Source: Gammaproteobacteria bacterium (GTDB taxonomy: Bacteria; Pseudomonadota; Gammaproteobacteria; Eutrophobiales; Eutrophobiaceae). Taken from it: a stretch of 64,000 bases of DNA. The stretch is taken from the NCBI GenBank assembly GCA_965229565.1, contig OZ245888.1, positions 37,801 to 101,800 of the forward strand, written 5' to 3'. Within the stretch, counting starts at the first letter, position 1. Each line of letters starts with the position of its first letter. Made by a program: the position numbers and the translations under genes. Below are positions 1,362 through 35,251 of this stretch, piece after piece. Below the pieces are notes generated by a model. That model worked only from the letters and a program-made list of their open reading frames with translations, did not search any database and was not told the origin of the DNA.

Positions 1362-3041
1362 TCAGTGGTTATCGCATTCGGCGAGGAAGGTTATGAGTTC
1401 TTCTCGATAGCGGTAATAGTCCGGGTGTGAGACCAGTGCCTTTCGACTGCGTGGACGTGGCAGATCAACATCCAGGACCTTACCCACCTTTGCGTTGGGA
1501 CCATTGGTCATCATCACCACACGGTCTGCCAGTAATATCGCTTCATCGACATCGTGTGTAACAACAATGGCAGTGACCTGTGTACGCGCCCAGACTTCCA
1601 TTAAAACTTCCTGTAATTCCCAGCGCGTCAGTGAATCCAGCATGCCAAAGGGCTCATCCAGCAACAGCAGCTTGGGTGATAAAGCAAAAGCACGGGCAAT
1701 ACCGACACGCTGTTTCATTCCATTGGATAATTCCGCTGCTTTTTTATGTAACGAGTCGCCGAGACCAACTCGAGTCAAGTAATATTCGATAATTTCATTG
1801 CGCTCTTTTCTTGAAGCATGTGGATAGACGCTTTCCACACCTAGCGCCACATTTTCTGCGGCTGTCATCCATGGAAACAGGCTAGGTGCCTGGAATACGA
1901 CGGCACGGTCCGGACCGGCACCATCAATCTCATGCTTGTCGAGTACGATACCGCCATCACTAATGTCATTCAGTCCCGCTGTCATGGACAGAACGGTGGA
2001 TTTACCACAGCCGGAGTGACCAATGATTGAAACGAACTCACCCTTCTGCATATTAAGATTAAAGCCATCGACTACAGTCAATGGTCCTTTAGGTGTCGGG
2101 TAAACCTTGGTGACGTTAAAAAATTCCAGGTACTTTCTCTCGCCCGGGTTATTCATATAGGGCTTGAGTGCATTGGGAACTTTATTCTTCTTTCCTTCAC
2201 CACTGCGATCAATTGGCTTGACCGGTGGTAGCTGAATCACGTTGTTGTCTACATCAGCGGTTTCATCGATGCCAATCTGCATCAGGTACTGCGTGATCTC
2301 ACTGCGCAGTTGCTTGAATTGCTCATCATGGTTCATGGCTGTTCTATCGCGTGGTCTATCCAGGTCAACAATAAACTCTGGACCAAACGTGGCATTAGGT
2401 CCCGGGTTGAGGGGAATAACACGGTCAGCCATGATCAGGCCTTCATCCACATCGTTGGTGATCAGGATGACGGTCTTCTGCTCCTGTTCCCAGATACGAA
2501 TGATCTCGTCCTGCAACTTGGCACGTGTTAACGCATCCAGTGCACTTAGCGGTTCATCCAGTAACAACACATCCGGACTCGCCGCGAGAGCCCGTGCAAC
2601 GTTTACGCGTTGACGCATTCCACCGGATAGTTCGGCCGGACGACGATTGACCGCGTGTGATAAACCCACCATCTCGATATATTTTTCGGTGTGGGCACGG
2701 CGTTGTTCACTGGACCAATCGGTATAGATAGCATCGACTGACAATGCAACGTTGCCATACACGGTTAACCAGGGCATTAGCGAGTAATTCTGAAAGACTA
2801 CTCCACGGTCAGGGCCGGGGCCGCTAACCGGCTTGTCTTTTTTGAAGATTTGTCCGGCATCGGCTTTTATCAGACCGGCAATTGCAGAAATGAGCGTGGT
2901 CTTGCCACTACCTGAAAATCCGACTATGGCAACAAACTCACCTTCATTAATTTCCAGATTAATATCCTTCAGGACATGGGTCTGTTTACTGCCCTTGCCA
3001 TAGGACTTGCGGAGGTTTTTTACGCTAAGAAATGACATCAC
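1362..3041 (-). CDS. nrtC: Nitrate ABC transporter ATP-binding protein, fused double ATPase (NrtC/NrtD-like)
   Basis: 559 aa with two ABC ATPase units: Walker [10 protein letters not shown] and [18 protein letters not shown] signature motifs, LLLDEP Walker B. Immediately downstream of nrtB. Confidence 0.85.
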
Positions 3042-3049: not shown

Positions 3050-4177
3050 CTAGCGGCTCTCGCCGAACGTAAACAGCTTTTGCAGCGTCAACATAACGCG
3101 ATCGAGCAGGAAACCAATAAAGCCAATAGTGAATACTGCCACCATGATCTTGCCCAACGATTGCGAACTGCCATTCTGAAATTCATCCCAGACAAATTTA
3201 CCGAGGCCCGGGTTTTGCGCCAGCATTTCGGCCGCAATCAATACCATCCAGCCCACACCCAGTGACAAACGCAGACCGGTAAATATCAGCGGCAGGGCAC
3301 TTGGTAAAACAATCCTGGTGACAGTCTTCATCCAGCTAAGCTTCAATACCTTCGACACATTCATCAGGTCCTTGTCTATCGATGCCACACCAACCGCGGT
3401 ATTGATCAGCGTTGGCCACAGAGAACACAGCGTCACGGTAATCGCCGAGGTTAAAAATGACTTATCAAACCAGGAATCATCGGTTATCTCATAAGTGGCG
3501 CTCACGACCAGTGTCACAATGGGTAGCCAGGCCAATGGCGACACCGGTTTAAAGATTTGTATTAACGGATTTAACGCAGTATTAATAATATTGCTCAGGC
3601 CGCAGACGATACCAAGTGGTACTGCAACCAGTGTGGCAAGTATGAACCCGGTAAATACGGTATAAAGGCTGGTAAAAATCTGGTCCAGGTATGTCGGCGG
3701 ACCCGTGTATGGTCGAATCTTGACATTGGCATCCGGGTTACTGGCCAGTCTCTTCTCGTTACGCTCTACCTGGCGTTGAATAAAGTCTGATTCTTTTTCG
3801 CGTTCACGGTAATGATCATCCACCAGGTTTCCAGCCTCTTCCCAGACCGCGGCCGGACCGGGGATAGCACCGAGGCTGGTTTCAACCCTGGCCGCAGACC
3901 AGTCCCAGATCATCAGGAAAAAGATAAAGGCGATCACTGGCACACCAATCATTAATAACATTTGCTTGAACTGTTCCTGCGGATCCTCACCGGCACAGAG
4001 CTTGACTACTGGCACGAACCAGTTCAGTCCAACCATCTCAAAAAAATTACCGAGTCGAGTAGAAAATGGTACGCCAGATTGCTGCTTAACTTCGTTTGTA
4101 GCCTTTATTTCCCCGCTTGCTGGAGAATCTGTCGATGTTTCAGGCTGTTCCTGTTTTAGTGCTGTATTTGTTTCCAT
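3050..4177 (-). CDS. nrtB: Nitrate ABC transporter permease
   Basis: 375 aa polytopic membrane protein with a BPD_transp-like permease core. The N-terminal extension is typical of NrtB. It lies between nrtA and the ATPase gene. Confidence 0.8.
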
Positions 4178-4257: not shown

Positions 4258-5616
4258 CTAGTTAACTGTTTCATCTCCCTTCAACCCAATCGGGAATTTA
4301 CTGAGGTAATCATTGGGAAACTTTCCATCAAACGTGATTTCATCGATGAACTCGGTTTGTGCCGGTTTGTAACCATCGGTATCCCACGGGATGTCTTCTT
4401 TCTTAATCAAACCTTCCTCAACCAGTTCCTTTGCCGCTGCCAGGTAGATGTCAGGTCGGTAAACTTTCTTAGCGACTTCGTGATACCAGCTATCCGGCCT
4501 GGATTCTGTAATCTGTCCCCAGCGACGCATCTGTGTCAGATACCAGATCGCATCGCTGTAAAACGGATAAGTGGCAAAGTAACGATAGAAAACGTTGAAA
4601 TCGGGAAGTGAGCGTTTATCACCCTTCTCGTATTCAAAGGTGCCTGTCATGCTGTTGGCAATCACCTCGTAGTCAGCGCCGACGTATTCAGAACGAGACA
4701 GGATCTCGACTGCTTCCTCGCGATTGGCGTCGTTATTGGCATCCAGCCATTGCGCTGCGCGTATTAATGCCTTGACTACAGCCTTGTGGGTATTCGGATT
4801 GGCCTCGGCCCACTCCGCGCTGACACCGAAGACTTTTTCCGGGTTATTTTTCCAGATCTCGTAGTCGGTAATGACTGGCACACCGATCCCCTTGAAGACG
4901 GCTTGCTGGTTCCAGGGCTCGCCCACGCAATAACCGTATATCGTGCCAGCCTCCATGGTTGCCGGCATCTGCGGCGGTGGTGTTACCGACAACAGTGCAT
5001 CGGCACTGATCTGACCGGTAATATCATTCTTTGAGTAATACCCCGGGTGGATGCCACCGGCTGCAAGCCAGTAACGTAATTCGTAGTTATGGGTAGACAC
5101 CGGGAACACCATACCCATGTTGAATGGTTTACCCTCGGCCTTGTACTCATCGACTACTGGTTTCAGGTAGTCGGCCTTAATGGGATGTACCGGCTTACCA
5201 TCTTCACCCTTAGGTACGTATTGTTTCATCTGTTCCCAGATATCATTGGAGACAGTAATTCCGTTTCCATTCAGGTCCATACTGAACGCGGTAATGACGT
5301 CAGCCTTGGTACCAAAACCGATGGTTGCGCCTAGTGGCTGGCCGGCCAGCATGTGTGCGCCATCCAGTTCACCATCAATAACTCGATCCAGTAATACCTT
5401 CCAGTTGGCCTGGGGTTCCAGAGTGACGTACAGACCTTCGTCCTCGAAATAACCTTTTTCATAGGCGATCGCCAGCGGCGCCATATCCGTCAGTTTGATA
5501 AAACCAAACTTGAGGTCTTCCTTCTCCAGATCTTCAAAAGCGTGAGCGTTGCCTGCAAGAAGCAGGGACGCCGCAAGAAAGCTTCTAATTACAGTATTCC
5601 AGTATTTACTACGCAT
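4258..5616 (-). CDS. nrtA: Nitrate/nitrite ABC transporter periplasmic substrate-binding protein
   Basis: 452 aa with a signal peptide ([26 protein letters not shown]) and an NrtA/NMT1-like fold. It is paralogous to the cytoplasmic NasS gene upstream. Confidence 0.8.
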
Positions 5617-5656: not shown

Positions 5657-5699
5657 AAAAAAAAACGCCCAGGGAACGATACTCTGTTCCATGGACGCC
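5657..5699 (-). terminator. Rho-independent terminator in the nrtA leader (candidate NasT/ANTAR-controlled attenuator)
   Basis: On the minus strand, a GC-rich hairpin (GCGTCCATGGAAC / GTTCCCTGGGCG, loop AGAGTAT) is followed by a run of 9 T. It sits ~40 nt upstream of the nrtA start codon, inside the 300-nt leader between nasS and nrtA. Confidence 0.55.
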
Positions 5700-5920
5700 T
5701 TTGCCCGTTTACTTAAACCAGTGAAAGTTTACATATACGTGAGGCTAACGGTGCCTCAACTTAAATCTCTAATTATTGTTATCGCAAGAGCTATGCCAAA
5801 AAGCCTGCTCGTATAAAACCATTGTATATCAACATTTCATGAATATTTAGTCGATTAAGCAGGATATTTCGTGCACCAAAAAGATAAAACCGGTGTCAAT
5901 CGTGCACAATTTCAGCGCAT

Positions 5921-7219
5921 CTATCGATTCAGTTTTTCCAATTGTGCCAACTCGACCAGGCAGTTCTCGACCTTGTGCCCGGAGAGATAACTCACCACAT
6001 TGTCCGGATCGAAGACGATGTTATCCATGTATTTATCTGCACCCAGTTTGAAATCCAGGTCGTCATCATCCAGCTTCCATTCACTGCCCTGTTCACCCTC
6101 GGTCTTGTAATTGAAAGACGGGTAAGTCAGACCAAGACGACTGGCGGCCAATCGATACACATCCGGCCGATAAACTGCTTCTGCAATCTGCTTGATATCG
6201 ATGACTTCCTGTAATTGCCCCCAGCGATACATCTGGCTAATGATCCATGTGGCATGTGAACACCAGGGGAAATTGGCCTGGTAGCGATGAAATACATGCA
6301 TATCAGGAATTGACCTGGGTTCAGCATCGGCATGGTTATTAAAGTTGCCCGCCAGCGATGCACGAATAATATCGGGTTCTATACCAATGTACTCATCACT
6401 TGCGAGTACATTGGCAAAACTGTCACGATTATTAGCGTTATCTATCCATGCCGCAGCCTCGATCAAGGCCATTACCAGGCAAAGGTGTGTTTTCGGGTGT
6501 TTCGCGGCCCAGTCCCTTGTAACACCGAACACCTTCTCCGGCGAATTATTCCATATCTGGTAACCACTGGTTAACAGTTTCCCAACACCCATACTCACGG
6601 CACAACTGTTCCATGGTTCACCCACGCAGAAACCATCAATCAGTCCGTCCTTGAGGTTATCCACCATGTACTGAGGAGGAATGACTTTTAGTGCCACGTC
6701 CCTGTCCGGGTTAATCCCGGCGGCTGCCATCCAGTAACGTATCTCATAATTATGATTTGAATACGGGTAAACCATGGCAAAGTTAAGCATAGGCTTTCCC
6801 GCCGCACTGTCCTCCTGCAGAATTTGTTTCAATGCTTTTGCTGAAAGGTTGGGATCATTTTCTATGTTGGCGTCTTTTTCCAGCAATCTTTCATAAAGCG
6901 CTTTTGATACAGTAATTGCGTTTCCATTCAGGTTCATACTGAACGATGTCACCATGGGTTTCTTGTTAAAACCAAGTCCCAACGTCGTTGCGATGGTCAT
7001 GCCCGCCAGCATGTGAGCGCCATCCAGTGCGCCCACGCATACCTTGTCACGAATATTGGCCCAGGAGGCCTCGCGCGAAAGACTCACCTCCAGCCCGTAT
7101 TTTTTAAAGAAGCCCTGTTCCCTGGCTGCTACAAGCACACAGCAATCAACAAGAGGAATAAACCCCAGTGTTAATTCATGCTTTTCCGGTACAGGTAGCT
7201 TGCTTTTTTCAGTCATCAT
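5921..7219 (-). CDS. nasS: Nitrate/nitrite sensor NasS (cytoplasmic NrtA-like binding protein)
   Basis: 432 aa NrtA-like protein with no signal peptide (MMTEKSKLPVPEKHELTLGFIPLVDCC...). Its start overlaps the stop of the ANTAR regulator gene (ATGA), as in the classic nasT-nasS arrangement. Confidence 0.7.
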   Translation of the reverse strand: MMTEKSKLPVPEKHELTLGFIPLVDCCVLVAAREQGFFKKYGLEVSLSREASWANIRDKVCVGALDGAHMLAGMTIATTLGLGFNKKPMVTSFSMNLNGNAITVSKALYERLLEKDANIENDPNLSAKALKQILQEDSAAGKPMLNFAMVYPYSNHNYEIRYWMAAAGINPDRDVALKVIPPQYMVDNLKDGLIDGFCVGEPWNSCAVSMGVGKLLTSGYQIWNNSPEKVFGVTRDWAAKHPKTHLCLVMALIEAAAWIDNANNRDSFANVLASDEYIGIEPDIIRASLAGNFNNHADAEPRSIPDMHVFHRYQANFPWCSHATWIISQMYRWGQLQEVIDIKQIAEAVYRPDVYRLAASRLGLTYPSFNYKTEGEQGSEWKLDDDDLDFKLGADKYMDNIVFDPDNVVSYLSGHKVENCLVELAQLEKLNR

Positions 7220-7821
7220 TATTTTCCCGTTCTCAACAGTTCTGCCGCAGCAATAATGCTGCGAGCCAGGTCAACCAGTTTCATGTTCCTGCTCATGGCA
7301 ATTTTTTGCATTGTTTTATGCGCGGTTTCCTCGTCATAATTTTGCTGCTTCATGACGATGCCCTTGGCCCTCTCGATCAACTTGCGTTCTTCCAGCGTGT
7401 TTTTTGTTTTCTCCAACTCTTCCCTGATTGATTGGTACTCCTTGAAGCGCGCCATCGCGGTTTCCAGGATTGGCATTACTCGTTGTGGATGCATCCCGTC
7501 TACGATGTATGCCGTCACACCAGCCTTCACTGCTTTCTGTATGGTGTCGCTGTCATCATCATTGGTGAACATCACGATCGGTCTTGGTCTCTCTGCACTA
7601 ATACTGTGCATATGTTCGATGGTATCGCGGTCAGGTGAATCCATATCGATAATGATAATGTCTGGCTGGTAACGACTGACAAGTTGCGGAAGGTCATGCC
7701 CTGAAGAGGCGGTGGCCACAATCCTGTGACCCAGGTTGGTCAACAATTTTTCCATCGCCATCGAGCGCTCAGGCAATTCATCAATGATCATAATGTTGAG
7801 TTGTTTATTGTCTCTAGCCAT
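7219..7821 (-). CDS. nasT: ANTAR-domain RNA-binding response regulator NasT
   Basis: REC domain (NIMIIDELP...DIIIIDMD) plus a C-terminal ANTAR domain (ERKLIERAKGIVMKQQNYDEETAHKTMQKIAMSRNMKLVDLARSII). The ORF-track start at 7926 is probably too early. An ATG at 7821 gives MARDNKQLNIMIIDE and a ~200 aa product. Confidence 0.75.
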   Translation of the reverse strand: MARDNKQLNIMIIDELPERSMAMEKLLTNLGHRIVATASSGHDLPQLVSRYQPDIIIIDMDSPDRDTIEHMHSISAERPRPIVMFTNDDDSDTIQKAVKAGVTAYIVDGMHPQRVMPILETAMARFKEYQSIREELEKTKNTLEERKLIERAKGIVMKQQNYDEETAHKTMQKIAMSRNMKLVDLARSIIAAAELLRTGK

Positions 7822-7955: not shown

Positions 7956-9218
7956 CTAGTACTTGAAGGTAAAGTACGCCCAGTACTTACTTAAATCAGT
8001 CGATTTCGGGTTACCCACATCCGAAGATGCATCGTATCCTGCATATTTCAGACCAACGGTATAGTGCTTGGCAAATTTTTTGGTAAACCAGATATCCAGT
8101 TCGTCACCATAATCAAAGCCGGCGTTCTCCGCCTCAAGCATATGATAGGAAACGATCAGTTTGGTATCGTAAGCACCGGTCGCGACAACGGTAAAGTAAG
8201 TGTCTTCGATACCAGCAGCCGGGGTGGCGAGGAAATTATCAGCCCAACCCTGGAAGGCGTGACCGGTTGCCAGCGGTGTCTTGAACGCATTGACACCATC
8301 ACCCGCACTTTCAAGCACCTCGTAACTGACCTTGGCCATCAGCGATTTGATAAACATCCCGTCGAACCTGGTTTTAAAACCACCTTCAAACAGGTAATAA
8401 TCCGCGTCATAGCTCGCAGCCGAGTTACCACCTTCTTCCTGCATGGCATACTCGGCGGTATAGATTAACCTGGTTCCCTCTTTAAATATCGGGAAACCAC
8501 CGTCAGCGCGGAGACCATATGTTTCTGTAGACAACCCGGGTAAATCATCAAATTCCAGATCGTAGTAATAACCCTCGAGATTTACATATTTCAGGCCTTT
8601 GTATTGCGCATTCAGGATTGGGGCACTCATATCACGGTCGGTACCGAAGATGGTGTTGTTATTCCAGATATAACCAGCCAACAGCGTGGTATCAGGCAAC
8701 GAGGTGTTGGTAACGGTAATCGAATCCTGGGTCTGCCAGTTTTGACGCCAGAGGACAGTGCCCAGGAAACGATGAAACGGGGCGGCCCTGGGCGTAATAA
8801 TCTGGCGACCAACTTTCACGAGCGTATCATTCATGAAAGTACCACCAAGGAATGCCTGGTTGATTTCGGTTCCACTTGGATCAGCTATTGTAGGCAAAGT
8901 GCCACGACCATTACGGGTATCATTGTACTGGGTATCACTCAAAACATCGGTGGTGTTTTCAAACTGTATGTAGCCAAACACATTATGAAAACTGCCCGTT
9001 TTATATCCCAGCGTTGACCGTACGGTAAACGCATCACCATCGTCAGTCTTCGAGTCATCTTCTACAAATTCGTAACGTGGCCGGAAACTGAAGTCCACCT
9101 TGCCGCTGGTCAATGCTTCCATCAATGCATCGTCAGCCTGAACGCTCATGCTCGTAGCGGACATCCCCATTAAGATGACGCCAGATATCGTCAATTGCTT
9201 ATAAATATTAGTTTTCAC
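7956..9218 (-). CDS. Outer-membrane beta-barrel porin associated with the nitrate assimilation locus
   Basis: Signal peptide (KTNIYKQLTISGVILMGMSATSMSVQA), alternating amphipathic beta-strand pattern, and C-terminal aromatic residues (YFTFKY). The ORF-track start is a TTG at 9254. A GTG at 9218 preceded by GAGGGAGA is the more likely start. Substrate specificity cannot be read from the sequence. Confidence 0.55.
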   Translation of the reverse strand: MKTNIYKQLTISGVILMGMSATSMSVQADDALMEALTSGKVDFSFRPRYEFVEDDSKTDDGDAFTVRSTLGYKTGSFHNVFGYIQFENTTDVLSDTQYNDTRNGRGTLPTIADPSGTEINQAFLGGTFMNDTLVKVGRQIITPRAAPFHRFLGTVLWRQNWQTQDSITVTNTSLPDTTLLAGYIWNNNTIFGTDRDMSAPILNAQYKGLKYVNLEGYYYDLEFDDLPGLSTETYGLRADGGFPIFKEGTRLIYTAEYAMQEEGGNSAASYDADYYLFEGGFKTRFDGMFIKSLMAKVSYEVLESAGDGVNAFKTPLATGHAFQGWADNFLATPAAGIEDTYFTVVATGAYDTKLIVSYHMLEAENAGFDYGDELDIWFTKKFAKHYTVGLKYAGYDASSDVGNPKSTDLSKYWAYFTFKY

Positions 9219-9252
9219 TACTTTTCTCCCTCTGGTACTACTTTTTTGAAAC

Positions 9253-9284
9253 AAAAAAAAACCACGTCAGCGAGCTGAGCGTGG
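9253..9284 (-). terminator. Rho-independent terminator in the porin leader (second candidate antitermination site)
   Basis: On the minus strand, hairpin CCACGCTCAGC / GCTGACGTGG followed by 9 T, ending ~35 nt upstream of the porin start. No ORF lies upstream on that strand, so it acts as a leader attenuator rather than a gene-end terminator. Confidence 0.5.
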
Positions 9285-9843
9285 CTTCATTACCGATTAG
9301 TAAATCTTTTACTTTCTGATTACGCCATTGTAATCAATCGTGATACTGCAAATGTAACAACGTAAATGCAGTTACCACAAAACATGGAAAGCACTAGTGC
9401 AATTAACAGGCCAACATATTACGGGTTTGAATTTATTACGTTTTTGTTAATCCAGCGCGTGAACGGACAAGCGCTATTGCACAACATTAGTTCGAAACAG
9501 GTTTGATTTGCCCGATTTAAGTGCTCGAACAATAAATACACTGCTGCTAAAAGATTTTTACTATTCGTTCTTAACAAGAATTTTATTATCGATACTGACG
9601 TTTATGATCACAAGAAAGAAAATATTTGTTCAATAATGATGCAATGATTCATCAAAAGAGTGCACAAGTTCTCTATTAGAACACCATGTCAATAATATGA
9701 GAGCAACAATAACAAGAACTTATACTGCTATTAAATTATGGCATACATCATGCAATTATCTTTAGCGTTCTAACGTTGGAACTATATGAATTAATAATTT
9801 CGGTTGCTGCACATCAGCGACTTTAATTTCTAAGAGACAAAGG

Positions 9844-9894
9844 CGTCGCTTAGTTGATTGATAGAACTGTCAATCAACCAGCGGCGTTTTTTTT
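9844..9894 (+). terminator. Strong Rho-independent terminator 13 nt upstream of the start codon of the flavoprotein-membrane fusion gene (third candidate antitermination leader)
   Basis: Perfect 9-bp inverted repeat GTTGATTGA (9853-9861) / TCAATCAAC (9870-9878) plus an outer CGTCGC/GCGGCG stem, followed by T8 (9887-9894). A competing upstream pairing GCGAC (9817-9821) / GTCGC (9845-9849) could serve as the antiterminator. Confidence 0.55.
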
Positions 9895-9907
9895 GGACGA
9901 TATTTAA

Positions 9908-11890
9908 GTGAATACAGCCCTAAAGCTGGATAAAAATCTGGCTGAAAAAATACTATCAAGAAGTAACAAGCCGATAGTCATCGTTGGTACGGGACCGGTG
10001 GGCATGCGTTTTCTTAATGATTTGCTTGCCGACGGCATCAATCAGCCGGTAGTTATCTATGGCGGAGAGCCCTGGATGCCCTATAACCGGGTTCGCCTTT
10101 CTTCACTGCTGGCTGGAGAGATCAGCCACCAGGATATCCTGATTCCAGACTCGAATACTGGACCACAATCGCTAATTAAACGCTATAACTGCCGCGTCGT
10201 GCGTATCGATCCTGATAATAAACTGGTTGAAGATGAGCACGGGCAAACACAGGAATACGAAAAATTAATCCTTGCTACCGGTTCCAATGCATTCGTGCCC
10301 GAAATTCCCGGTATAAACATGAGGGGTGTTTACCAGTTTCGGGACCTAAAGGATACCGAGCACCTGATGGCCCGGCGCACAAGCAGTCGCCACACGGTAG
10401 TGTTGGGAGGAGGTTTACTGGGTCTTGAAGCCGCCCGGGCCATGCAACGTTACAGCACGCATGTATCAGTTATTGAACACAACCGTTTCCTCATGTTTCG
10501 ACAATTGGACGAAACCGCAGCAGGCATTTTCAAGCAACATGTTGAATCTATGGGCATCGATGTTTACCTGCAGGAATCAGTTAAACAGGTTCACGGCGAA
10601 GATCGTGTTACTCACATTGAATTACGTTCAGGCAAGGTACTGACCTGTGACACATTAATAGTATCTGCCGGTATTACTCCTAATATTGAACTGGCGAAGC
10701 AGGCCGGCCTGGCCTTTGGTAGAGGGATCAAGGTCAACGATGCGATGCAGACATCCAACCCTGATATATATGCAATCGGTGAATGTTGTGAGCATCAGGG
10801 ACAAATTTACGGCATTGTTGCGCCCGGTTATGAACAGGCCCTGATCGCGGCCATGAACATAGCCAGTAAACCCATGAAATACAAAGGCACGGTTCTGGCT
10901 ACCAGTCTCAAGGTTGTCGGCAAGCCTGTGTTCAGTATGGGTGATGTCGATGACAGTGTTCGTACCTACTCGACCTATACCTATCAAAAGGACGGTTTCT
11001 ATCGTCGCCTTAATGTGTATCGCGGCCGGTTACTTGGCGTTATAGCAATCGGTGAATGGTCGGAACTGATTCAACTCAAGGAACATGTCAAAAAAGGCAG
11101 GTTACTGTTTCCGTGGCAACTGCGACGTTTTACCAGTACTGGTGAGCTATGGGACAGCGATATTTTACAGGAAGTCACCCAGTGGCCTGCCGAGGCCACG
11201 GTTTGTTCGTGTAACGGCATATCTCGTGGGCAGCTCAGCAAGGAAATCAATAGCGGTTGCAGGACGATTTCACAACTTGCTGAAAAAACCGGGGCCTCCA
11301 CGGTTTGCGGTTCTTGTAAACCATTGCTGGTTAATATGCTCGGTCAGAAAGAGATTGAACCGACACGCGGCTGGAAACCATTATTGAAGGGTTCCGTGAT
11401 TGTAGTTGTTATGTGTTTCGTCGCTTACCTGCTCCCGGCCATACCCTATAACGATACGGTCCAGGTATCCTGGCGCTGGGACATGCTGTGGACCGAAAGC
11501 CTGTTCAAGCAGATCAGCGGTTTCACACTTCTGGCCATGTCTGTCCTGGTATTAATCCTGTCATTACGCAAGCGAATCAAATGGATCTCATGGGGAGATT
11601 TTCCAATCTGGCGCCTGCTTCATGCCCTGCTCGGCGGTAGCGCTATTTTTGTCCTGTTAATACATACCGGTTTTCGCCTTGGCGACAATCTGAATTTTTA
11701 TCTGATGATGAGTTTTACGTCGCTGTTATTGGTTGGCGCAATTATCGGTTCCGTGATTGCCATGGAACATAAGCTGGCCGCAAGCACAGTAAGACAGTTA
11801 AGAAATATCGGAACCTGGCTGCACATACTCCTGTTCTGGCCAATTCCAGTGTTGCTCGGCTTTCATATTTTTAAAACCTATTACTTTTAA
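9908..11890 (+). CDS. NirB-N-terminal-like NAD(P)H flavoprotein (FAD/NAD + BFD 2Fe-2S) fused to a C-terminal ferric-reductase-like di-heme-b membrane domain
   Basis: GTG start. Residues 1-~470 align motif-for-motif with the NirB N-terminus: GTGPVGMRF, YNRVRLSS, ATGSNAFVP, VLGGGLLGLEAA, NPDIYAIGECC, VAPGY, and BFD cysteines CSCNGISRG...CGSCKP. The C-terminal ~190 aa has 4-5 TM helices carrying two HX13H pairs (LLHALLGGSAIFVLLIH; WLHILLFWPIPVLLGFH), as in ferric-reductase/NOX heme-b domains. Confidence 0.7.
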   Translation: MNTALKLDKNLAEKILSRSNKPIVIVGTGPVGMRFLNDLLADGINQPVVIYGGEPWMPYNRVRLSSLLAGEISHQDILIPDSNTGPQSLIKRYNCRVVRIDPDNKLVEDEHGQTQEYEKLILATGSNAFVPEIPGINMRGVYQFRDLKDTEHLMARRTSSRHTVVLGGGLLGLEAARAMQRYSTHVSVIEHNRFLMFRQLDETAAGIFKQHVESMGIDVYLQESVKQVHGEDRVTHIELRSGKVLTCDTLIVSAGITPNIELAKQAGLAFGRGIKVNDAMQTSNPDIYAIGECCEHQGQIYGIVAPGYEQALIAAMNIASKPMKYKGTVLATSLKVVGKPVFSMGDVDDSVRTYSTYTYQKDGFYRRLNVYRGRLLGVIAIGEWSELIQLKEHVKKGRLLFPWQLRRFTSTGELWDSDILQEVTQWPAEATVCSCNGISRGQLSKEINSGCRTISQLAEKTGASTVCGSCKPLLVNMLGQKEIEPTRGWKPLLKGSVIVVVMCFVAYLLPAIPYNDTVQVSWRWDMLWTESLFKQISGFTLLAMSVLVLILSLRKRIKWISWGDFPIWRLLHALLGGSAIFVLLIHTGFRLGDNLNFYLMMSFTSLLLVGAIIGSVIAMEHKLAASTVRQLRNIGTWLHILLFWPIPVLLGFHIFKTYYF

Positions 11891-11907
11891 GTGAACCCTG
11901 AAACTGA

Positions 11908-13359
11908 ATGCTCAAAAACAAAAATCTATGGCTATGGTTGATATGGCTTTTACTCACGCTTGCATTTACAACATACCTGGTAATGAAGATTAATAACAAG
12001 GCGGCAGATAAATCAATTTTTCTCCCTGGTGAAACCACGCACGGTCATCATCAAATAGAACTCGCCTGCGGAGCCTGCCATAGCAAATCGTTTGCTGACA
12101 AGGAAGCAATACAGGAGTCCTGCATGAATTGTCATGGCAAGGCATTAAAAGACAATGATGACAAACATCCAAAAAGCAAGTTTACCGACCCACGTAATGC
12201 CGAACGTGTTGCGATACTGGATGCCCGCTATTGCGTCACCTGCCATATAGAACACAACCCGGAAGTTACATTGGAAATGGGCGTGACCATGCCGCCTGAC
12301 TATTGCCACCTCTGTCATGAAAAAATCGCGGAGGAACGCCCCAGTCATGAAGGTATGGCATTTACCACCTGTGCTTCGGCCGGTTGTCATAACTACCACG
12401 ACAACCAGGCACTGTATGAAGACTACCTGATCAAGCATTTACATCAGCCCGATATCCTCGATAAACAGGAATTTCCGCCGGACTTGAACCTTGATGAACT
12501 CGCACCGGTATTACCCGAGTATCCGATCAAGGATTATCCGCTCGAACGCCTGAAACTGGTCGATGCGAATGCGCCACTAAATATTGAATACGACGCCGAG
12601 ATTCTATACGAATGGTTTGACACCACGCATGCCAACTCCGGTGTGAACTGTACTGCCTGCCACCAGCAAACAATTAATGAAAAGACGGTATGGACCGACA
12701 CGCCCGATCACAAGGTTTGTGCAAGTTGCCATGGACCCGAGGTAGATGGCTTCCTGGCAGGCAAACATGGTATGCGCCTGGATAGCGAAAGACTAAAACA
12801 GGAACTCACAGCAATGACACCCGACCTGGCACGTCTCCCGATGAAGAAAGACGTGCAACACAAGGAGCTGGGTTGTAACAGTTGCCATGAAGCACACGAC
12901 TATAACACCACCACGGCCCGGGTAGAGGCCTGCCTGGGTTGCCATGATGATGAACACAGCCTGGCCTATATCGATTCGCCACACCATAAACTCTGGAAAC
13001 AGGAACTGGCGGGTGAACTACCCGAACACAGTGGCGTTACCTGTGCCACCTGTCATATGCCACGAATAGAAAAGGAATTCATGGACGGCATGTTTTACAT
13101 GGGCATCGTGCAACACAACCAGAACGACACACTGCAACCAAATGAAAAGATGCTGCGACCGGTATGCATGGACTGCCATGGACTGGGCTTTGGCATTGAT
13201 GCCCTTGCCGATGAAAAACTGATTCATAACAACTTCGACGGGCAGCCAGGCGTTCATATTGAAAGCATGGACATGGCCGAAGTCCGCATGAAAGAAGCAG
13301 AGGAAAAGAGGAGACGTCTACGCGAGCAGGCTAAAGACGAAAATTCACCAACCCCATAA
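11908..13359 (+). CDS. Membrane-anchored multiheme cytochrome c with 10 CXXCH motifs plus one CX4CH
   Basis: N-terminal TM anchor (LWLWLIWLLLTLAFTTYLV). Heme motifs: CGACH, CMNCH, CVTCH, CHLCH, CASAGCH, CTACH, CASCH, CNSCH, CLGCH, CATCH, CMDCH. Several occur as doubled CXXCH pairs. 483 aa. Confidence 0.8.
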   Translation: MLKNKNLWLWLIWLLLTLAFTTYLVMKINNKAADKSIFLPGETTHGHHQIELACGACHSKSFADKEAIQESCMNCHGKALKDNDDKHPKSKFTDPRNAERVAILDARYCVTCHIEHNPEVTLEMGVTMPPDYCHLCHEKIAEERPSHEGMAFTTCASAGCHNYHDNQALYEDYLIKHLHQPDILDKQEFPPDLNLDELAPVLPEYPIKDYPLERLKLVDANAPLNIEYDAEILYEWFDTTHANSGVNCTACHQQTINEKTVWTDTPDHKVCASCHGPEVDGFLAGKHGMRLDSERLKQELTAMTPDLARLPMKKDVQHKELGCNSCHEAHDYNTTTARVEACLGCHDDEHSLAYIDSPHHKLWKQELAGELPEHSGVTCATCHMPRIEKEFMDGMFYMGIVQHNQNDTLQPNEKMLRPVCMDCHGLGFGIDALADEKLIHNNFDGQPGVHIESMDMAEVRMKEAEEKRRRLREQAKDENSPTP

Positions 13360-13386
13360 AAAAACCAGCACTACAGGAGAAGTAAA

Positions 13387-13971
13387 ATGTTAAAACTGAA
13401 AAAAGTCATGATTACGGCCACACTGGTAGCAGCTTGTGCCCTGCCATTCACAGCATCGTCGGAGATAGCCGATACACCGACGTTTACGCCCAAGCAGTTG
13501 GCCGACTGGCTACACCTGGTTATGTCGACTGACCGGGCGGTTTATACCAAGAAGATTGTGAACAGACTGGTAAAGAAGGACAAGGTCATCAAGGCCAGCG
13601 AGCATTTTGAAGATGACAAGGCCCTGGTATTACCGGCACAGATGTTCCGCTTCGGTGCAGAAGAAGTCGCCAAGAAAACGGACCAGTTTACCTATTCTCT
13701 GCAATCACTATGGCCTATCAACAAGCAGAACGCCCCGCGCACTGAAATAGAAAAGGCCGGCCTCGCCTATGTTAGCGAGAACAAGGGAGAAAACTACTAC
13801 GGTGTTGAAGAACTCGGGGGCACCCAGTATTTCACCGCCGTGTATGCCGACCCCGCTGTTGCGCCTGTTTGTGTCAGCTGTCATAACGAACACAAGGACA
13901 CACCAAAGAGTGATTTCAAACTGGGTGATGTTATGGGCGGCGTGGTGATTCGTATACCTCTGAAGGGCTAA
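13387..13971 (+). CDS. Periplasmic heme-binding protein, DUF3365/Tll0287-like
   Basis: Signal peptide followed by a single C-terminal CVSCHNEH heme motif and GDVMGGVVIRIP. The overall length and motif placement match the DUF3365 family (assignment from memory of family features). Confidence 0.5.
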   Translation: MLKLKKVMITATLVAACALPFTASSEIADTPTFTPKQLADWLHLVMSTDRAVYTKKIVNRLVKKDKVIKASEHFEDDKALVLPAQMFRFGAEEVAKKTDQFTYSLQSLWPINKQNAPRTEIEKAGLAYVSENKGENYYGVEELGGTQYFTAVYADPAVAPVCVSCHNEHKDTPKSDFKLGDVMGGVVIRIPLKG

Positions 13972-13975
13972 CGAA

Positions 13976-14338
13976 ATGCGTTCTGCCATCACATTATCCA
14001 TGACTTTGTGCCTGATGCCTTTTTTCGTACACGCAGACGAAAGCCGGTATCGGGATTTTGACAGCGATCACCTGATTTTTGGCAAAAAAGTCTGGATTGA
14101 AACATGTGAAGGCTGCCACGGCTGGGGAATAGGTGGTGCACCTATTCCCCTCCACTACGACCAATGGGAAGACCGCATCGCCAAGGGTAAAGACATCCTG
14201 TACCAGCATGCTATCGATGGATACTTTGGACCCGATGACAGCATGATGCCCGAGCGTGGCGGTAACCCGGAACTCAGTGACGAAGAAGTCAAAGCTGCCG
14301 TGGATTACATGGTTGAACTGGCAAAAAGTCACCAATAA
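13976..14338 (+). CDS. Monoheme class I cytochrome c (c5/c-553-like)
   Basis: Signal peptide, a single CEGCHG heme motif, a downstream Met ligand region (MMPERGG). 120 aa. Confidence 0.7.
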   Translation: MRSAITLSMTLCLMPFFVHADESRYRDFDSDHLIFGKKVWIETCEGCHGWGIGGAPIPLHYDQWEDRIAKGKDILYQHAIDGYFGPDDSMMPERGGNPELSDEEVKAAVDYMVELAKSHQ

Positions 14339-14358
14339 ACGAGACGAGGAGAATTGCA

Positions 14359-14772
14359 ATGACCCCGAAACAAATTGAACTGGTTAGCGGCACCTGGGAA
14401 ATGGTGTTACCCATTTCAGACCAGGCTGCGGCCATGTTCTATGCCCGGCTATTTGAGATCGCGCCTGAAGTAAAACCGCTGTTTTCCGGTGATATGGAAG
14501 CACAGGGTAAGAAACTGATGCAAATGATCAACACCGCAGTGGATAACATCGAAGATGTGGAAAAGATCATTCCAGCACTTGAAGATTTGGGTAAACGCCA
14601 TGTTGGGTATGGCGTCACAGATGAACACTACGCCCAGGTGGCAGAAGCATTACTATGGACCCTGGAGCAAGGGCTGGGTGACGCTTTTACAGAGGATGTG
14701 AAACAGGCGTGGACGGAAACCTACATGACGCTGGCAGGCGTCATGATTGAGGCTTCAAAGGAAGCTGCTTAA
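14359..14772 (+). CDS. Single-domain bacterial hemoglobin (Vitreoscilla/Cgb-like globin)
   Basis: FYARLFEIAPEVKPLF resembles the VHb helix B/C region FYKNLFAKHPEVRPLF. A proximal His lies in GKRHVGYGVTDEHY. 137 aa, no signal peptide. Confidence 0.65.
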   Translation: MTPKQIELVSGTWEMVLPISDQAAAMFYARLFEIAPEVKPLFSGDMEAQGKKLMQMINTAVDNIEDVEKIIPALEDLGKRHVGYGVTDEHYAQVAEALLWTLEQGLGDAFTEDVKQAWTETYMTLAGVMIEASKEAA

Positions 14773-14839: not shown

Positions 14840-14870
14840 AAAAAAAACCCGCCAATGGCGGGTTTTTTTA
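14840..14870. terminator. Bidirectional Rho-independent terminator
   Basis: AAAAAAAA-CCCGCC-AAT-GGCGGG-TTTTTTTT. It ends the plus-strand redox operon and the convergent minus-strand small gene. Confidence 0.8.
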
Positions 14871-28919: not shown

Positions 28920-29041
28920 TATGTTTCTCCTAAGTTGACGCTACGATTGGCAAGTATGTATTAACTTTTTTACCATGTTCATATGTAACCATATCGTGTA
29001 AAAACAATATGTATAGTAACTAGTAGGCTTTATTGATATTA

Positions 29042-29620
29042 CTAATGTCCATGCTCTGCCGAATTTTCACCACGAGCGGTGAGTATCTGGTATTGCGCTG
29101 GTGAAAGTTCTGGCAGGCGTCTGAGGAAGGCGACCATGTTCCAGATACGCTCGTCGTCGTGCCCCGCCCCCCAGGCGGGCATGCCGGAGGCTTTGATACC
29201 ATGCTTGATGATCCAGAACTGGCGCTGCAGGGTGTATTGCCCCCCATCCTGACCGCCATAACCGTGCTCGTGTTCATCCATTGTCAACCTGGGCGGTGAG
29301 GGATAAAGCCCTAATGTAAAATCGCTTTGCTTCATACCCGGTTTCAGATGGCAACCAACGCACATGTCGTTATAGTCAGCACCGCCTTTGAGAAGGCGAT
29401 CAGGCAAGTTCAGATTATCGGGAATAACGATATCGCTTGCCGCCCGTGCGATCGAACGCTCGCGCAAGGTTTCCAGCGCCCAGTAGGTCATTGAATTGTG
29501 TGGGACGTCGGCTCCCATGGGATAGAGACCGGAATAAATTAATACCAGCCCACCGGAGATGGCAATGCCTGCTGCTAGCAGCAGGCATTTGCCACAAGAT
29601 ATAAATTTGCTTACGGACAT
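29042..29620 (-). CDS. c-type monoheme cytochrome in the copper resistance cluster (CopJ-like by context)
   Basis: Single CVGCH motif. Probable start is MSVSKFISCGKCLLLAAGIAISGG (ATG at 29620), not the ORF-track start at 29704. Confidence 0.55.
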   Translation of the reverse strand: MSVSKFISCGKCLLLAAGIAISGGLVLIYSGLYPMGADVPHNSMTYWALETLRERSIARAASDIVIPDNLNLPDRLLKGGADYNDMCVGCHLKPGMKQSDFTLGLYPSPPRLTMDEHEHGYGGQDGGQYTLQRQFWIIKHGIKASGMPAWGAGHDDERIWNMVAFLRRLPELSPAQYQILTARGENSAEHGH

Positions 29621-29768
29621 GTTGCCCCGCGATGTATGGGCCCTGGTGACACCACCATGATTGGTATTTCCTCTTGAATATCGGTAACGGTGCCCGACAG
29701 ACAAATTATCCTTGCCATGCTTCGGATGCTCGGCCTGATGTTGTACAGGATTATCGATCGCATCATCA

Positions 29769-30092
29769 TTACATGTCCTTGTGGTCCATGTCTTCTTGCT
29801 TCATGTCTTTGTGATCCATGCCTTTATGCATCATATCTTTGTGATCCATGTCCATATGCTCCATGCCATCATGCTTCATGTCTTTATGATCCATGCTTTC
29901 CTTGCATTTCTGCATCATGGCCTGCATTACGGGATCGTTTTTGTCCATCTTGCTTTCATCCATGTTTTTCATGGTGGCGCAGTCTGGCTTTTGTGCATCT
30001 TTCATATGCTCTTTGGGATCGTGCGCCTGCGCGGTTACGGCAAACAGCAGAGACTGGATAATGACAAGGGTAGTTAAAGTAATCTGTTTCAT
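29769..30092 (-). CDS. Periplasmic His/Met/Asp-rich repeat protein with (M-D-H-K-D-M)n motifs
   Basis: Signal peptide followed by repeated MDHKDM/MEHMDM units. Composition typical of periplasmic copper-binding proteins. Confidence 0.5.
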   Translation of the reverse strand: MKQITLTTLVIIQSLLFAVTAQAHDPKEHMKDAQKPDCATMKNMDESKMDKNDPVMQAMMQKCKESMDHKDMKHDGMEHMDMDHKDMMHKGMDHKDMKQEDMDHKDM

Positions 30093-30149
30093 TTGACATT
30101 CCTCACGTTAATGGATTATGTGTTAAGACTAAATGCTGTAAATTAAATT

Positions 30150-30995
30150 CTAAAACCAGAATCGCAAACCGGCAACAAAGCGTGTGTCACTGTCATTTTC
30201 TCCGGCAGCGCGCAGGTAATCCGCCGTTTCGCCGAAGGCAGAAGACCACTCTACTCCGATATAGGGCGCAAACTGGCGGCTGAACTCGTAGCGAAGACGC
30301 ACCCCAATTTCAAGATCGGTGAGACCATCACCCAGACCGTTGGCACGATCTTCTTTCCCGTACAGGTTCAGTTCTGTACGTGGTTGCAAAATCAGTCTTT
30401 GCGTTAATAACAGCTCATATTCGGCTTCCAGGTTAACTGCAGTGCGCCCGTTTTCGCCCAGGTAGGCGGTCACATCCAACTCAAACCAGTATGGTGCGAG
30501 ACCCAGGATCCCTAGTGCTAACCAACGGCGATTCTTGCCTTCATCATACTGGTCGAAACGGACGCCGAGCTGCGTGTCGAAAAAAGCATTCACTGCATGC
30601 GACCAGAATACTTCAGTCTGGCTGCTTTCCAGACGGTCATCGACAATGTCACCTTCCGCCTTGACGTAAAACCGGTCAAAGGTGGTGCCATACCAACCCT
30701 GGAAATCATACAGTGTGCTACCATCGCTCTCGCTGTATTCTAGGCGATCACCGAGCACGGCCCAGAAGGCATGTTCATCGGCCAATTTGAGTTGCCTGAC
30801 ACCGGGTTGGGCATAGGGACCCTCGGTCAGGGTGTAGCCATCTGCATAGTCATGGGGATCGCGAGCGTCCTCGGGCGCGCTGCCTCCCTGCATTTGCATA
30901 TTTCCATGCTCCTTTTGCGCCAACGCAGTATCAGTCTGAACTAGGCCAAAAGTCAGCAGCAACAGACTTATCAAAGTTCCTGTTTTAAAATTCAT
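30150..30995 (-). CDS. copB: Copper resistance outer-membrane protein CopB/PcoB
   Basis: Signal peptide, Met/His-rich N-terminal segment (HGNMQMQGG), beta-barrel ending in WF. Overlaps the copA stop (ATGA). Confidence 0.75.
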   Translation of the reverse strand: MNFKTGTLISLLLLTFGLVQTDTALAQKEHGNMQMQGGSAPEDARDPHDYADGYTLTEGPYAQPGVRQLKLADEHAFWAVLGDRLEYSESDGSTLYDFQGWYGTTFDRFYVKAEGDIVDDRLESSQTEVFWSHAVNAFFDTQLGVRFDQYDEGKNRRWLALGILGLAPYWFELDVTAYLGENGRTAVNLEAEYELLLTQRLILQPRTELNLYGKEDRANGLGDGLTDLEIGVRLRYEFSRQFAPYIGVEWSSAFGETADYLRAAGENDSDTRFVAGLRFWF

Positions 30996-32788: not shown

Positions 32789-32834
32789 ATATGATTAAAT
32801 TTACAGTAATGTAGATACATGAACTGAACGACTC

Positions 32835-34199
32835 CTACGCTATTCCATAAGCAAGCATTGCATCTGCAACTTTTACAAAGCCCGCGATATTGGCACCATC
32901 AACATAATTAATTTTTCCGTCGTCACCATTCCCGTACTGTAAACATTGACTATGTATATGCTTCATAATTTGCTTTAATTTTTCATCAACTTCTTCTCTA
33001 GTCCAGGCAAGTCTTAATGCATTCTGACTTTGCTCAAGCCCGGACACGGCAACTCCTCCAGCATTCGCTGCTTTTGCTGGAGCAAATAGAACTTCATTAT
33101 CTTGAAATAACCTAACAGCCTCTAATGTTGTTGGCATGTTAGCGCCTTCTGCCAAGGCTATTACTCCATTGTCAATTAAGGCTCTAGCGTGATTTAAGTC
33201 TAATTCATTTTGAGTAGCACAAGGAAAAGCCAGGTCAGATTTAATAACCCAAGGTCGTTGATCAGGAAAATATTCTGCTGAAGCGTATCTATTGACATAT
33301 TCTCTAATACGACCTCGTTTGACAAACTTTAACTCTCTAACCCAGCTTAGCTTTTCACCATCAATACCATCAGGATCATGAATAAATCCGCTTGAGTCAG
33401 AAAGTGTTAATACTGTTACTCCTTCATCTATCAATTTTTCTGCACAAAATAAGGCAACATTTCCTGAGCCGGAAATGACAGCACTTTTCCCGTCCAATCG
33501 CATATCATGATATGTAAGCATCTGTTTAGTAAAATATACAACGCCATACCCTGTTGCCTCGGATCTAATTAAGCTTCCACCAAAAGATAGACCTTTACCT
33601 GTTAATGTCCCGACAAAACGATTATTTAGCCTTTTATACTGTCCAAACAAGAAGCTAATCTCTCTTGCTCCCACACCAATGTCACCAGCAGGAACATCTG
33701 TATCCTCTCCAATATGGCGAGATAATTCAGTCATTAATGATTGGCAAAATCTCATTACCTCTCTTTCACTTTTACCTTTGGGATCGAAATTACTTCCACC
33801 TTTAGCACCACCCATTGGAAGTCCTGTTAGCGCATTCTTATAAACTTGCTCAAACCCCAAGAACTTTAGAATACTTTGTGTAACTCCCGGGTGAAATCTA
33901 AGGCCGCCTTTATAAGGACCAATGGCGTTATTAAATTGAACTCGCCAGGCACGATTGCAACAGATATGTCCGTCATCGTTTTCCCAACATACTCGAAATA
34001 TCACAATTCTATCAGGCTCAGTCATTCGTTCGAGAATGTGACCATCAGCATATTGTTCATTGTTCATGGCGAAAGGCATGACTGACTCTGTAAACTCTCT
34101 AACAGCCTGATGAAATTCATACTCTGCAGGATTTCGCTCAGTCACTCCCTGGTTAAATAATTCGGTTTCATGTTTAATATTTTCATTGTTATATATCAT
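32835..34199 (-). CDS. gdhA: NADP-specific glutamate dehydrogenase
   Basis: GLPMGGAKGGS catalytic motif with the Glu/Leu/Phe/Val dehydrogenase N- and C-domains. 454 aa. Confidence 0.85.
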   Translation of the reverse strand: MIYNNENIKHETELFNQGVTERNPAEYEFHQAVREFTESVMPFAMNNEQYADGHILERMTEPDRIVIFRVCWENDDGHICCNRAWRVQFNNAIGPYKGGLRFHPGVTQSILKFLGFEQVYKNALTGLPMGGAKGGSNFDPKGKSEREVMRFCQSLMTELSRHIGEDTDVPAGDIGVGAREISFLFGQYKRLNNRFVGTLTGKGLSFGGSLIRSEATGYGVVYFTKQMLTYHDMRLDGKSAVISGSGNVALFCAEKLIDEGVTVLTLSDSSGFIHDPDGIDGEKLSWVRELKFVKRGRIREYVNRYASAEYFPDQRPWVIKSDLAFPCATQNELDLNHARALIDNGVIALAEGANMPTTLEAVRLFQDNEVLFAPAKAANAGGVAVSGLEQSQNALRLAWTREEVDEKLKQIMKHIHSQCLQYGNGDDGKINYVDGANIAGFVKVADAMLAYGIA

Positions 34200-34985: not shown

Positions 34986-34987
34986 GA

Positions 34988-35218: not shown

Positions 35219-35251
35219 GATGGCATCCTCGATAAATAAATATTATTAGCG

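Follow-up and report, generated by a model that had tools for sequence, protein, structure and literature searches.

Why would transcription terminators stand directly upstream of two divergent transcription units, where there is no preceding gene to terminate? This question arises in a 64-kb (64,000-nucleotide [nt]) stretch of a 2.75-Mb metagenome-assembled contig (ENA ERZ25074583) from a gammaproteobacterium, hereafter the window, the first 15 kb of which are occupied by a nitrate locus. In this locus, a gene for a porin-like outer-membrane protein and a five-gene heme operon (g1 to g5) diverge from a 689-nt spacer, and each is preceded by a hairpin and a run of T. An earlier note on this DNA had assigned both elements to the antitermination regulon of the nitrate-uptake gene nrtA. 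Our results suggest that the two terminators are probably the off switches of ANTAR-type attenuators, working in the same two-signal circuit as the nrtA leader. From the sequence and comparative evidence, a common antitermination regulon for the porin gene, the heme operon, and nrtA appears well supported.

Architecture of the three leaders

RNA folding placed the end of the porin T-run 34 nt, and the end of the heme-operon terminator 13 nt, upstream of the respective GTG start codons (Table 1), in agreement with the earlier claim that both terminators lie within 40 nt of a start. The hairpin-plus-T-run attenuator claimed for the nrtA leader was recovered as well. None of 200 shuffles of the porin terminator folded as well as the native sequence. 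The spacer (9219-9907) contained no open reading frame (ORF) longer than 52 amino acids (aa), so neither terminator ends an upstream gene, as had also been claimed. A consensus promoter/terminator scan of the window listed neither 9253-9285 nor 9842-9894, because their loops or mismatches fall outside its rules, and RNA folding was used instead.

The target of ANTAR proteins, as established for EutV and NasR, is a pair of hexaloop hairpins with A at the first and G at the fourth loop position (A1/G4), the second of which overlaps a terminator (PMC3369931). Folding, the check suggested in the earlier note, revealed a pair of this kind (P1 and P2) in all three leaders, with P2 overlapping the 5' arm of the terminator. 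The order of parts was the same throughout: a putative sigma-54 element, P1, a spacer hairpin, P2, and a terminator that starts inside P2. All loops except that of nrtA P1 were composed of six bases with A first and G fourth, and P2 of the heme operon and P2 of nrtA carried the same loop, AAAGGC. P2 and the terminator share bases in each leader and hence are mutually exclusive; in the porin leader, where the overlap is weaker, the end of the P2 loop and its 3' arm (AAGCC) form the start of the terminator 5' arm. When the leaders were truncated before the 3' arm of the terminator, the minimum-energy structure consisted of P1, the spacer hairpin, and P2. P2 was much weaker than the terminator in every case (Table 1), which is what a protein-dependent antiterminator needs. 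The predicted structures therefore display the features by which an ANTAR target can be tested, namely tandem P1 and P2 before a terminator, A1/G4 loops, exclusivity of P2 and the terminator, and a nearby ANTAR gene.

The divergent spacer was compared with that of a close relative (locus L001), the decaheme protein of which is 79% identical. Both promoters, both P1s, both P2s, both terminators, and a few upstream blocks emerged as conserved islands, with insertions and deletions elsewhere. A1 and G4 were kept through every loop change. In porin P1, the loop AAUGGC is replaced by AAAGGC, and one A:U pair of the stem by G:U. Heme P1 has an entirely different stem in L001, which is nevertheless paired (GAUCCU-AAUGGC-GGGAUU), and its loop has changed from AACGUU. 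Porin P2 reads UGGU-AAAGGA-GCCA in L001, the loop being AAUGAA in the window, and UGGU-AACGAA-GCCA in a further genome (L003), again with A1/G4. The core of heme P2, which matches GACAAAGACGUCGC in the narK consensus of Rfam, was identical in L001, and in the heme terminator one G:C pair is replaced there by A:U, a compensatory change. Conservation followed the same pattern in the nrtA leader.

The linkers between P1 and P2 were 22 nt (porin), 53 nt (heme operon), and 33 nt (nrtA) long, each with a self-folding spacer hairpin, whereas those of most other genomes were 3-16 nt long and unstructured. The extra hairpin was present in all three leaders in L001 as well, its presence being kept but not its sequence; in the heme leader, L001 has a different hairpin at this place. 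It is assumed that the spacer hairpin brings P1 and P2 together.

An antiterminator formed by GCGAC (9817-9821) and GTCGC (9845-9849) had been suggested for the heme leader. Both motifs are present, but their pairing was not supported: GCGAC forms the 3' arm of the spacer hairpin, the L001 spacer hairpin has no such complementarity, and neither the minimum-energy nor the centroid fold of the nascent leader contained the pairing, P2 being formed instead. The pairing was rejected in favor of P2, which would take that role. The spacer hairpin at 9802-9822, which has a 5-nt loop, was ruled out as heme P1 by the comparison with L001, which revealed a conserved A1/G4 hexaloop at 9767-9782.

Each leader is headed by a putative sigma-54 promoter. 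A search for the consensus TGGCAC-N5-TTGCW with at most one mismatch returned seven matches in the window, against 6.75 expected, and three of them lie in the three leaders, each with one mismatch, in the right orientation, and at matching distances. Since seven matches were found where 6.75 were expected, the consensus match alone is not significant, and it is position, orientation, and conservation in L001 that carry the argument. The heme promoter also agrees with the 5' portion of the consensus of Rfam narK. Between the predicted porin transcription start and porin P1 lies an additional 5' hairpin (GUGGUAACUGCA...UGCAGUAUCAC, 9340-9378, minus strand), which is partly conserved in L001.

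Further blocks conserved in L001 were found upstream of the promoters: TTGCACAACA, TTTGCCCGATTTAAGTGC, TTGTTCAATAATGATGCA, and AGTGCA in the divergent spacer (9478-9525 and 9627-9665), and TTGTGCACGA...TTTTGGTGCA upstream of nrtA (5870-5915). They carry half-sites resembling TGCAC/GTGCA, those in the divergent spacer without the classic TGCACC-N5-GGTGCA spacing, and may be candidate binding sites for an enhancer-binding protein of the NtrC type.

Table 1. Coordinates of the leader elements, genes, and other features in the window (energies in kcal/mol)
Feature	Position	Strand	Details
Porin leader			
Putative sigma-54-type promoter	9398..9413	minus	TGGCCT-N5-TTGCA, element TGGCCTGTTAATTGCA; predicted start near 9387; L001 form TGGCCTGGAATTTGCT
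P1	9317..9336	minus	UGAUUAC-AAUGGC-GUAAUCA; A1/G4 hexaloop
Spacer hairpin	9299..9313	minus	between P1 and P2, from folding
P2	9283..9294	minus	GGU-AAUGAA-GCC; weak, -0.9
Terminator	9285-9253	minus	AAGCCACGcUCAGCucgcGCUGACGUGGUU then U9; stem of 8 + 4 pairs, -14.1
Heme-operon leader			
Putative sigma-54-type promoter	9739..9754	plus	TGGCAT-N5-ATGCA (GG-N10-GC), element TGGCATACATCATGCA; predicted start near 9765; conserved in L001
P1	9767..9782	plus	GUUCU-AACGUU-GGAAC; A1/G4 hexaloop
Spacer hairpin	9802..9822	plus	between P1 and P2; GCGAC as 3' arm
P2	9830..9853	plus	core GAC-AAAGGC-GUC at 9836-9847, extended CUAAG.GAC/GUC.CUUAG; -7.2; overlaps terminator 5' arm
Terminator	9842..9894	plus	19-pair stem then U8; -25.4, z = -6.1
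nrtA leader	5657..5798	minus	reference leader
Putative sigma-54 promoter	5798-5783	minus	element TGGCATAGCTCTTGCG; predicted start near 5772
P1	5758-5740	minus	UGAGGC-ACCGUUA-GCCUCA; 7-nt loop, A1/G4 kept
Spacer hairpin	about 5712-5738	minus	
P2	5706-5693	minus	GGGC-AAAGGC-GUCC; -3.4
Terminator	5699-5657	minus	U9; -18.1
Nitrate locus			
nrtCD	1362-3041	minus	fused double ATPase
nrtB	3050-4177	minus	
nrtA	4258-5616	minus	preceded by 300-nt leader region after nasS
nasS	5921-7219	minus	NrtA-like (NMT1_2), without signal peptide; Pfam 1e-84
nasT	7219-7821	minus	receiver + ANTAR domains; 200 aa from ATG 7821; Pfam ANTAR 6e-20, Response_reg 1e-14
Terminator between porin gene and nasT	7908-7878	minus	very strong; 13 pairs, 9 of them G:C
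Porin-like outer-membrane protein	7956..9218	minus	420 aa from GTG 9218; signal peptide, C-terminal aromatic residue
Five-gene heme operon	9908..14772	plus	divergent from porin gene; assigned by Pfam, NCBIfam, and CXXCH counts
g1	from GTG 9908	plus	660 aa; NirB-N-terminal-like FAD/NAD domain, BFD-type [2Fe-2S] domain, C-terminal membrane domain
g2		plus	483 aa; N-terminal membrane anchor, decaheme cytochrome c, ten CXXCH
g3		plus	Tll0287-like heme-c protein; signal peptide, one CXXCH
g4		plus	monoheme cytochrome c
g5		plus	single-domain globin; Pfam Globin 3e-19
Terminator after g5	14841-14869		symmetrical A7-stem-T7 hairpin
Metal-resistance neighborhood			
Multicopper oxidase	30992-32788	minus	
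Heavy-metal P-type ATPase	36307-38829	minus	two HMA domains
RND efflux pump	40059-43157	minus	two unannotated adjoining upstream ORFs at 43161-45730

Recurrence of the leader signature

A simple descriptor, two A..G.. hexaloop hairpins plus a T-run, found the heme and porin leaders, and shuffled windows yielded 1.5 ± 1.6 matches per 128 kb of strand, or ~0.002 per 150-nt leader. Scanning of 185,579 species-representative genomes, one per species, detected more than 580 loci with the heme module, and 80 of these (L001-L080; 2.5 Mb of strand) were analyzed. A strict arrangement was defined in which the loop or 3' arm of a P2 hexaloop begins a terminator of at least 6 pairs that is followed by at least 5 T. 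This arrangement was present in 26 of 60 regions upstream of g1 and 18 of 29 upstream of nrtA, versus 1.5% of 20,000 random 345-nt segments of the same loci (~28-fold enrichment). With P1 added, the counts were 18 of 60 and 14 of 29, versus 0.4% of the random segments (~70-fold). The leader signature recurred before orthologous operons of Gamma-, Beta-, and Alphaproteobacteria.

Twenty-six leaders from other genomes served to build a covariance model (R1); the window and its three closest relatives were left out. When both strands of the window were searched with filters off, the best R1 match was the porin leader (17.9 bits, E = 0.05), followed by the heme leader (14.8 bits, E = 0.24), and in fourth place came the nrtA leader (11.3 bits). 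The E values are modest because the long P1-P2 spacers are penalized, and the ranking is the informative result rather than the E values. The third-ranked match (31674-31706, minus strand, 11.7 bits) lies inside the multicopper oxidase gene; its first loop is 9 nt long and its second lacks A1, and from position and loops it was judged a chance match.

Over the 80 loci, R1 gave 53 matches at E ≤ 0.5, 27 of which were absent from the seed alignment. All but two precede, on the same strand and by no more than 450 nt, one of three targets: the heme operon in 30 cases, nrtA or an nrtA/nasS-like gene in 20, and the porin gene in 1. The remaining two follow nrtC and may precede nirB- or nasA-like genes. 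A leader of its own was present at 33 of the 61 heme operons for which the g1 start was recovered, and at three further loci (L017, L074, and L079) g1 directly follows nrtC or the porin gene on the same strand. In an alignment of 27 mostly non-seed matches (A5), 97.9% of the cells were paired, and 44 cells had changed on both sides, compared with 13.9 ± 3 in shuffles; sliding of the partners destroyed the pairing.

At gathering thresholds, Rfam detected no leader family in the window, only three tRNAs. Permissive scans matched the narK family (RF03032) to the heme leader (20.2 bits) and the nrtA leader (16.1 bits), with a gathering score of 43.2, and gave no RF03032 match for the porin leader. 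These sub-threshold matches were used as a lead only, and STnc50 and snoRNA matches in the permissive scans were dismissed as chance.

A probable two-signal circuit and its alternatives

The present analysis shows how the leaders are built, how the energies of their hairpins compare, that nasT-nasS is adjacent, and that the elements are conserved; which promoters are used, which protein binds, and which signal is sensed are inferred. Under nitrogen limitation, the sigma-54 promoter, most likely activated by NtrC, would initiate transcription ~115-135 nt ahead of each terminator. When no protein partner is bound, folding predicts that the leader forms the strong terminator (-14 to -25 kcal/mol) in preference to P2 (-1 to -7 kcal/mol); since the terminator is far stronger, the default outcome would be a short terminated leader RNA. 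Nitrate or nitrite would release NasT from NasS, as published work on this pair suggests, and NasT would bind the A1/G4 hexaloops of P1 and P2, keeping P2 closed and withholding the first bases of the terminator 5' arm. RNA polymerase could then read through into the porin gene or the five-gene heme operon. [quoted passage not shown] The earlier view that the two extra terminators are NasT-type attenuators of the nrtA regulon therefore gains in likelihood from the dual A1/G4 hexaloops, the overlap of P2 and terminator, the adjacent nasT-nasS, the putative sigma-54 promoters, and the conservation in many genomes.

Several observations weigh against this circuit. Its weakest link is porin P2, a hairpin of only 3 base pairs that shares 3-5 nt with the terminator, and nrtA P1 has a loop of 7 nt instead of 6. 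The P1-P2 spacers of 22, 53, and 33 nt are long, and in the EutV system altered linker length lowered induction (PMC3369931). The E values of R1 in the window (0.05 and 0.24) are marginal, and the scores of the heme and nrtA leaders against RF03032 fall below the threshold. Finally, the covariation counts lean toward structure, because the seeds picked by the descriptor were required to have A1/G4 and pairing and A5 was fitted to R1.

Alternatively, the elements could be ordinary unregulated hairpin-T-runs, such as constitutive attenuators, terminators of short noncoding or antisense transcripts, or insulators between the divergent promoters, with hexaloops present by coincidence. The ~1.5 chance matches of the simple descriptor per shuffled window, the silence of the consensus terminator scan, and the marginal individual E values of R1 would be compatible with this explanation. 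However, the elements are placed precisely in the 5' leaders of nasT-neighboring genes, where there is no upstream gene to terminate, they form conserved islands in an otherwise diverged spacer, and they recur at orthologous operons with the ~28-fold and ~70-fold enrichments given above, all of which makes this explanation very improbable. If the leaders are ANTAR-type attenuators, they could still answer another ANTAR regulator or another signal (nitrite, nitric oxide [NO], or redox state), with nitrate uptake and the heme operon only loosely co-regulated. Other ANTAR regulators may exist, as the window represents 64 kb of the 2.75-Mb contig, a point that also counts against NasT as the partner. 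The loop sequences vary somewhat among the three leaders, and many loci have a leader before the heme operon with no nasT within 10 kb. On the other hand, 22 of the 61 loci with a recovered g1 start have nasT no farther than 10 kb from the heme operon, often as its direct neighbor. In the window, nasT-nasS is positioned between the porin gene and nrtA, the P2 loops of the heme operon and nrtA are identical, and one model made from nrtA and heme-operon leaders together finds both classes. A different regulator or signal is accordingly an unlikely explanation.

It is also conceivable that the terminated leader RNAs of ~115-135 nt act mainly in trans as small RNAs, as proposed for NalA, and that control of the downstream genes is secondary. 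The leaders are discrete structured units running from promoter to terminator, and the equivalent nirBD leader of Pseudomonas was named as an RNA, NalA (PMC10783516). The terminators, however, lie 13-40 nt from the downstream start codons, and the downstream genes have no separate promoter. Complementarity of the leaders to a target was not noticed either, although no search aimed at it was made. A trans-acting function is, moreover, compatible with the cis mechanism and not an alternative to it, and as the main function of the leaders we regard it as the least probable of all. Control by NasT-dependent antitermination in cis, shared with nrtA, therefore remains the preferred interpretation.

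Genes of the locus and comparison with known systems

The porin gene was reannotated. The earlier note had favored a GTG start at 9218 over the TTG at 9254, and this choice is supported here: the TTG sits in the U-run of the terminator, so a start there would put the terminator tail inside the reading frame. The GTG is preceded by a Shine-Dalgarno sequence, GAGGGAGA, at 9232-9225. In L001 and L003, the homologous gene likewise begins with a GTG located after the terminator, with GGGAGAA as its Shine-Dalgarno sequence and stop codons in frame further upstream; homologs 420-425 aa long align over 100% of the protein. The public gene call (402 aa; region 9164-9254) starts downstream of the conserved GTG, inside the signal peptide. 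The NCBIfam "Opr family porin" model matched with E = 2.5e-7 and 30 bits, under its cut-off of 150, and no Pfam match was obtained for the window porin even at E ≤ 10. The porin family comprises more than 1000 proteins, mostly without a Pfam match, a few of which match PF13372. Unrelated genomes also carry it in their nitrate clusters (L003, L004, L017, L026, L036, L050, L074, and L079). The porin is plausibly a component of nitrate uptake. No published nitrate-cluster porin was found in the literature searched, a library that is incomplete and gives no proof of absence.

The nasS product is presumed to be the nitrate/nitrite sensor that holds NasT. The best solved relatives of NasT were Rv1626 (4e-26) and EutV (5e-23). 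The longest nasT ORF begins at TTG 7926 and overlaps the 7908-7878 terminator, and the start was for this reason set at ATG 7821. Because this terminator separates the porin gene from nasT, nasT-nasS need their own promoter or read-through. Neither nasA nor nirBD was found among the window ORFs tested.

The genes of the heme operon are separated by gaps of 4-27 nt. The hairpin that follows g5 would terminate in both directions. The 628-aa g1 of the public record begins only at Met33 (region 9908-10004), past the conserved GTG, and thereby loses the GxGxxG dinucleotide-binding motif; the start at GTG 9908 stands, since GTGAATACAGC is conserved in L001. The C-terminal domain of g1 contains ~150 residues with several membrane helices and histidines and had no Pfam match even at E ≤ 10. 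The protein search returned ~4000 homologs of the decaheme g2, few of them named, the names being "cytochrome c3 family," "NrfA- nitrite reduction protein," or "hypothetical." An AlphaFold2 model of g2 from a 23-sequence alignment was too poor to use (mean predicted local distance difference test score 55, predicted template modeling score 0.45).

The order g1-g2-g3-(g4)-g5, with g4 optional, was kept throughout the 80 analyzed loci, in many of which the module adjoins nrtABC, nasS-nasT, or the porin gene. The loci belong to Gamma-, Beta-, and Alphaproteobacteria, along with some bins labeled Planctomycetota or Verrucomicrobiota. Several also carry a distant g1 paralog (33-39% identity), which we provisionally take as NirB; if it is NirB, an accessory role of the module would be favored over replacement of NirBD. 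We found no published description of the module in the same incomplete library, which again does not prove absence.

The domain content suggests an electron path from cytoplasmic NAD(P)H through FAD, the [2Fe-2S] center, and the histidine-rich membrane domain to the periplasmic multiheme proteins, with a cytoplasmic globin alongside. It points to periplasmic reduction of N-oxides or hydroxylamine and/or NO detoxification during nitrate use as possible roles. A further proposal, which we put forward tentatively and with more doubt than confidence, is that g1-g5 might constitute an undescribed, widespread enzyme system of nitrate assimilation, which would move cytoplasmic reducing power across the membrane for periplasmic nitrite, NO, or hydroxylamine, and which might be a core, ancient member of a sigma-54 plus ANTAR regulon across Proteobacteria, beside a dedicated nitrate porin.

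The leaders would link two unannotated functions, the porin family and the heme module, to a scarcity of fixed nitrogen in the presence of nitrate. Of greater interest is the conserved, putatively nitrate-specific switch before a widespread uncharacterized redox module, as it provides a testable hypothesis for the role of the module, the candidates being the handling of nitrite, NO, or hydroxylamine in the periplasm while nitrate is assimilated. These leaders may also serve as a sequence marker for further regulon members in marine and groundwater bacteria, and the public-record starts of the porin and g1, both N-terminally truncated, are corrected. Elsewhere in the window, a metal-resistance neighborhood (29000-45800, minus strand; Table 1) is unrelated to the leaders.

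In a profile search, g2 with its homologs showed local similarity to NrfA (2e-7), to an HAO-like protein (6e-7), and to the eight-heme nitrite reductase, TvNiR (8e-7), all of them multiheme nitrite or hydroxylamine enzymes. Unlike these proteins, g2 has ten CXXCH motifs and no CXXCK, and the matches are local only, spanning just 50-140 residues.

The nitrate-assimilation cluster narK-bjgb-flp-nasC of Bradyrhizobium encodes a single-domain hemoglobin, Bjgb, and an FAD/NAD(P)H flavoprotein, Flp, involved in NO detoxification (PMC4724949). In kind, these resemble g5 and the flavoprotein part of g1. Beyond such a pair, the module described here encodes a Tll0287-like heme protein, a monoheme cytochrome c, and a periplasmic decaheme cytochrome, and its flavoprotein carries an additional membrane domain. 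Expression of narK-bjgb-flp rose, rather than fell, in a nasT mutant of Bradyrhizobium. Bradyrhizobium NasT controls the non-assimilatory nap and nos genes (PMC6759348), a precedent for its action beyond the nas genes. This bears on the earlier statement that the regulon is extended beyond assimilation, which we consider overstated and doubtful. It is not new in principle, because of the nap/nos precedent, nor clearly true here, because in many genomes the module lies within nrt/nas clusters; the porin, too, plausibly serves nitrate uptake.

The RF03032 consensus opens with GGCACA-N5-UUGCU, which resembles a sigma-54 promoter, and ends with GACAAAGACGUCGC, equivalent to P2, and both blocks align to the heme and nrtA leaders. 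The spacing of the blocks is 62-67 nt here versus 27-28 in the model, and the leaders are not members by Rfam score. RF03032 seems to represent leaders of this type, only more tightly spaced.

In the nasF leader of Klebsiella oxytoca, a sigma-54/NtrC promoter is likewise followed by a leader terminator with an A1/G4 two-hairpin target, so that nitrogen limitation and nitrate are both needed (PMC3369931, PMC7496416, PMC12591593). The regulator there is the one-component NIT-ANTAR protein NasR, in contrast to the NasS-NasT pair here, and the target genes differ. A further close parallel is the NalA leader of nirBD in Pseudomonas putida and Pseudomonas aeruginosa (PMC10783516), on which NasT, a receiver plus ANTAR protein released from NasS by nitrate, acts through two hexaloop hairpins whose A1 and G4 are essential. 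The leaders described here differ in that P1 and P2 are 22-53 nt apart with an extra hairpin between them, and in that their targets would be a porin gene and a flavoprotein/multiheme/globin operon instead of nirBD. The proposed mechanism is the textbook one of ANTAR antitermination, and it is the targets that are new.

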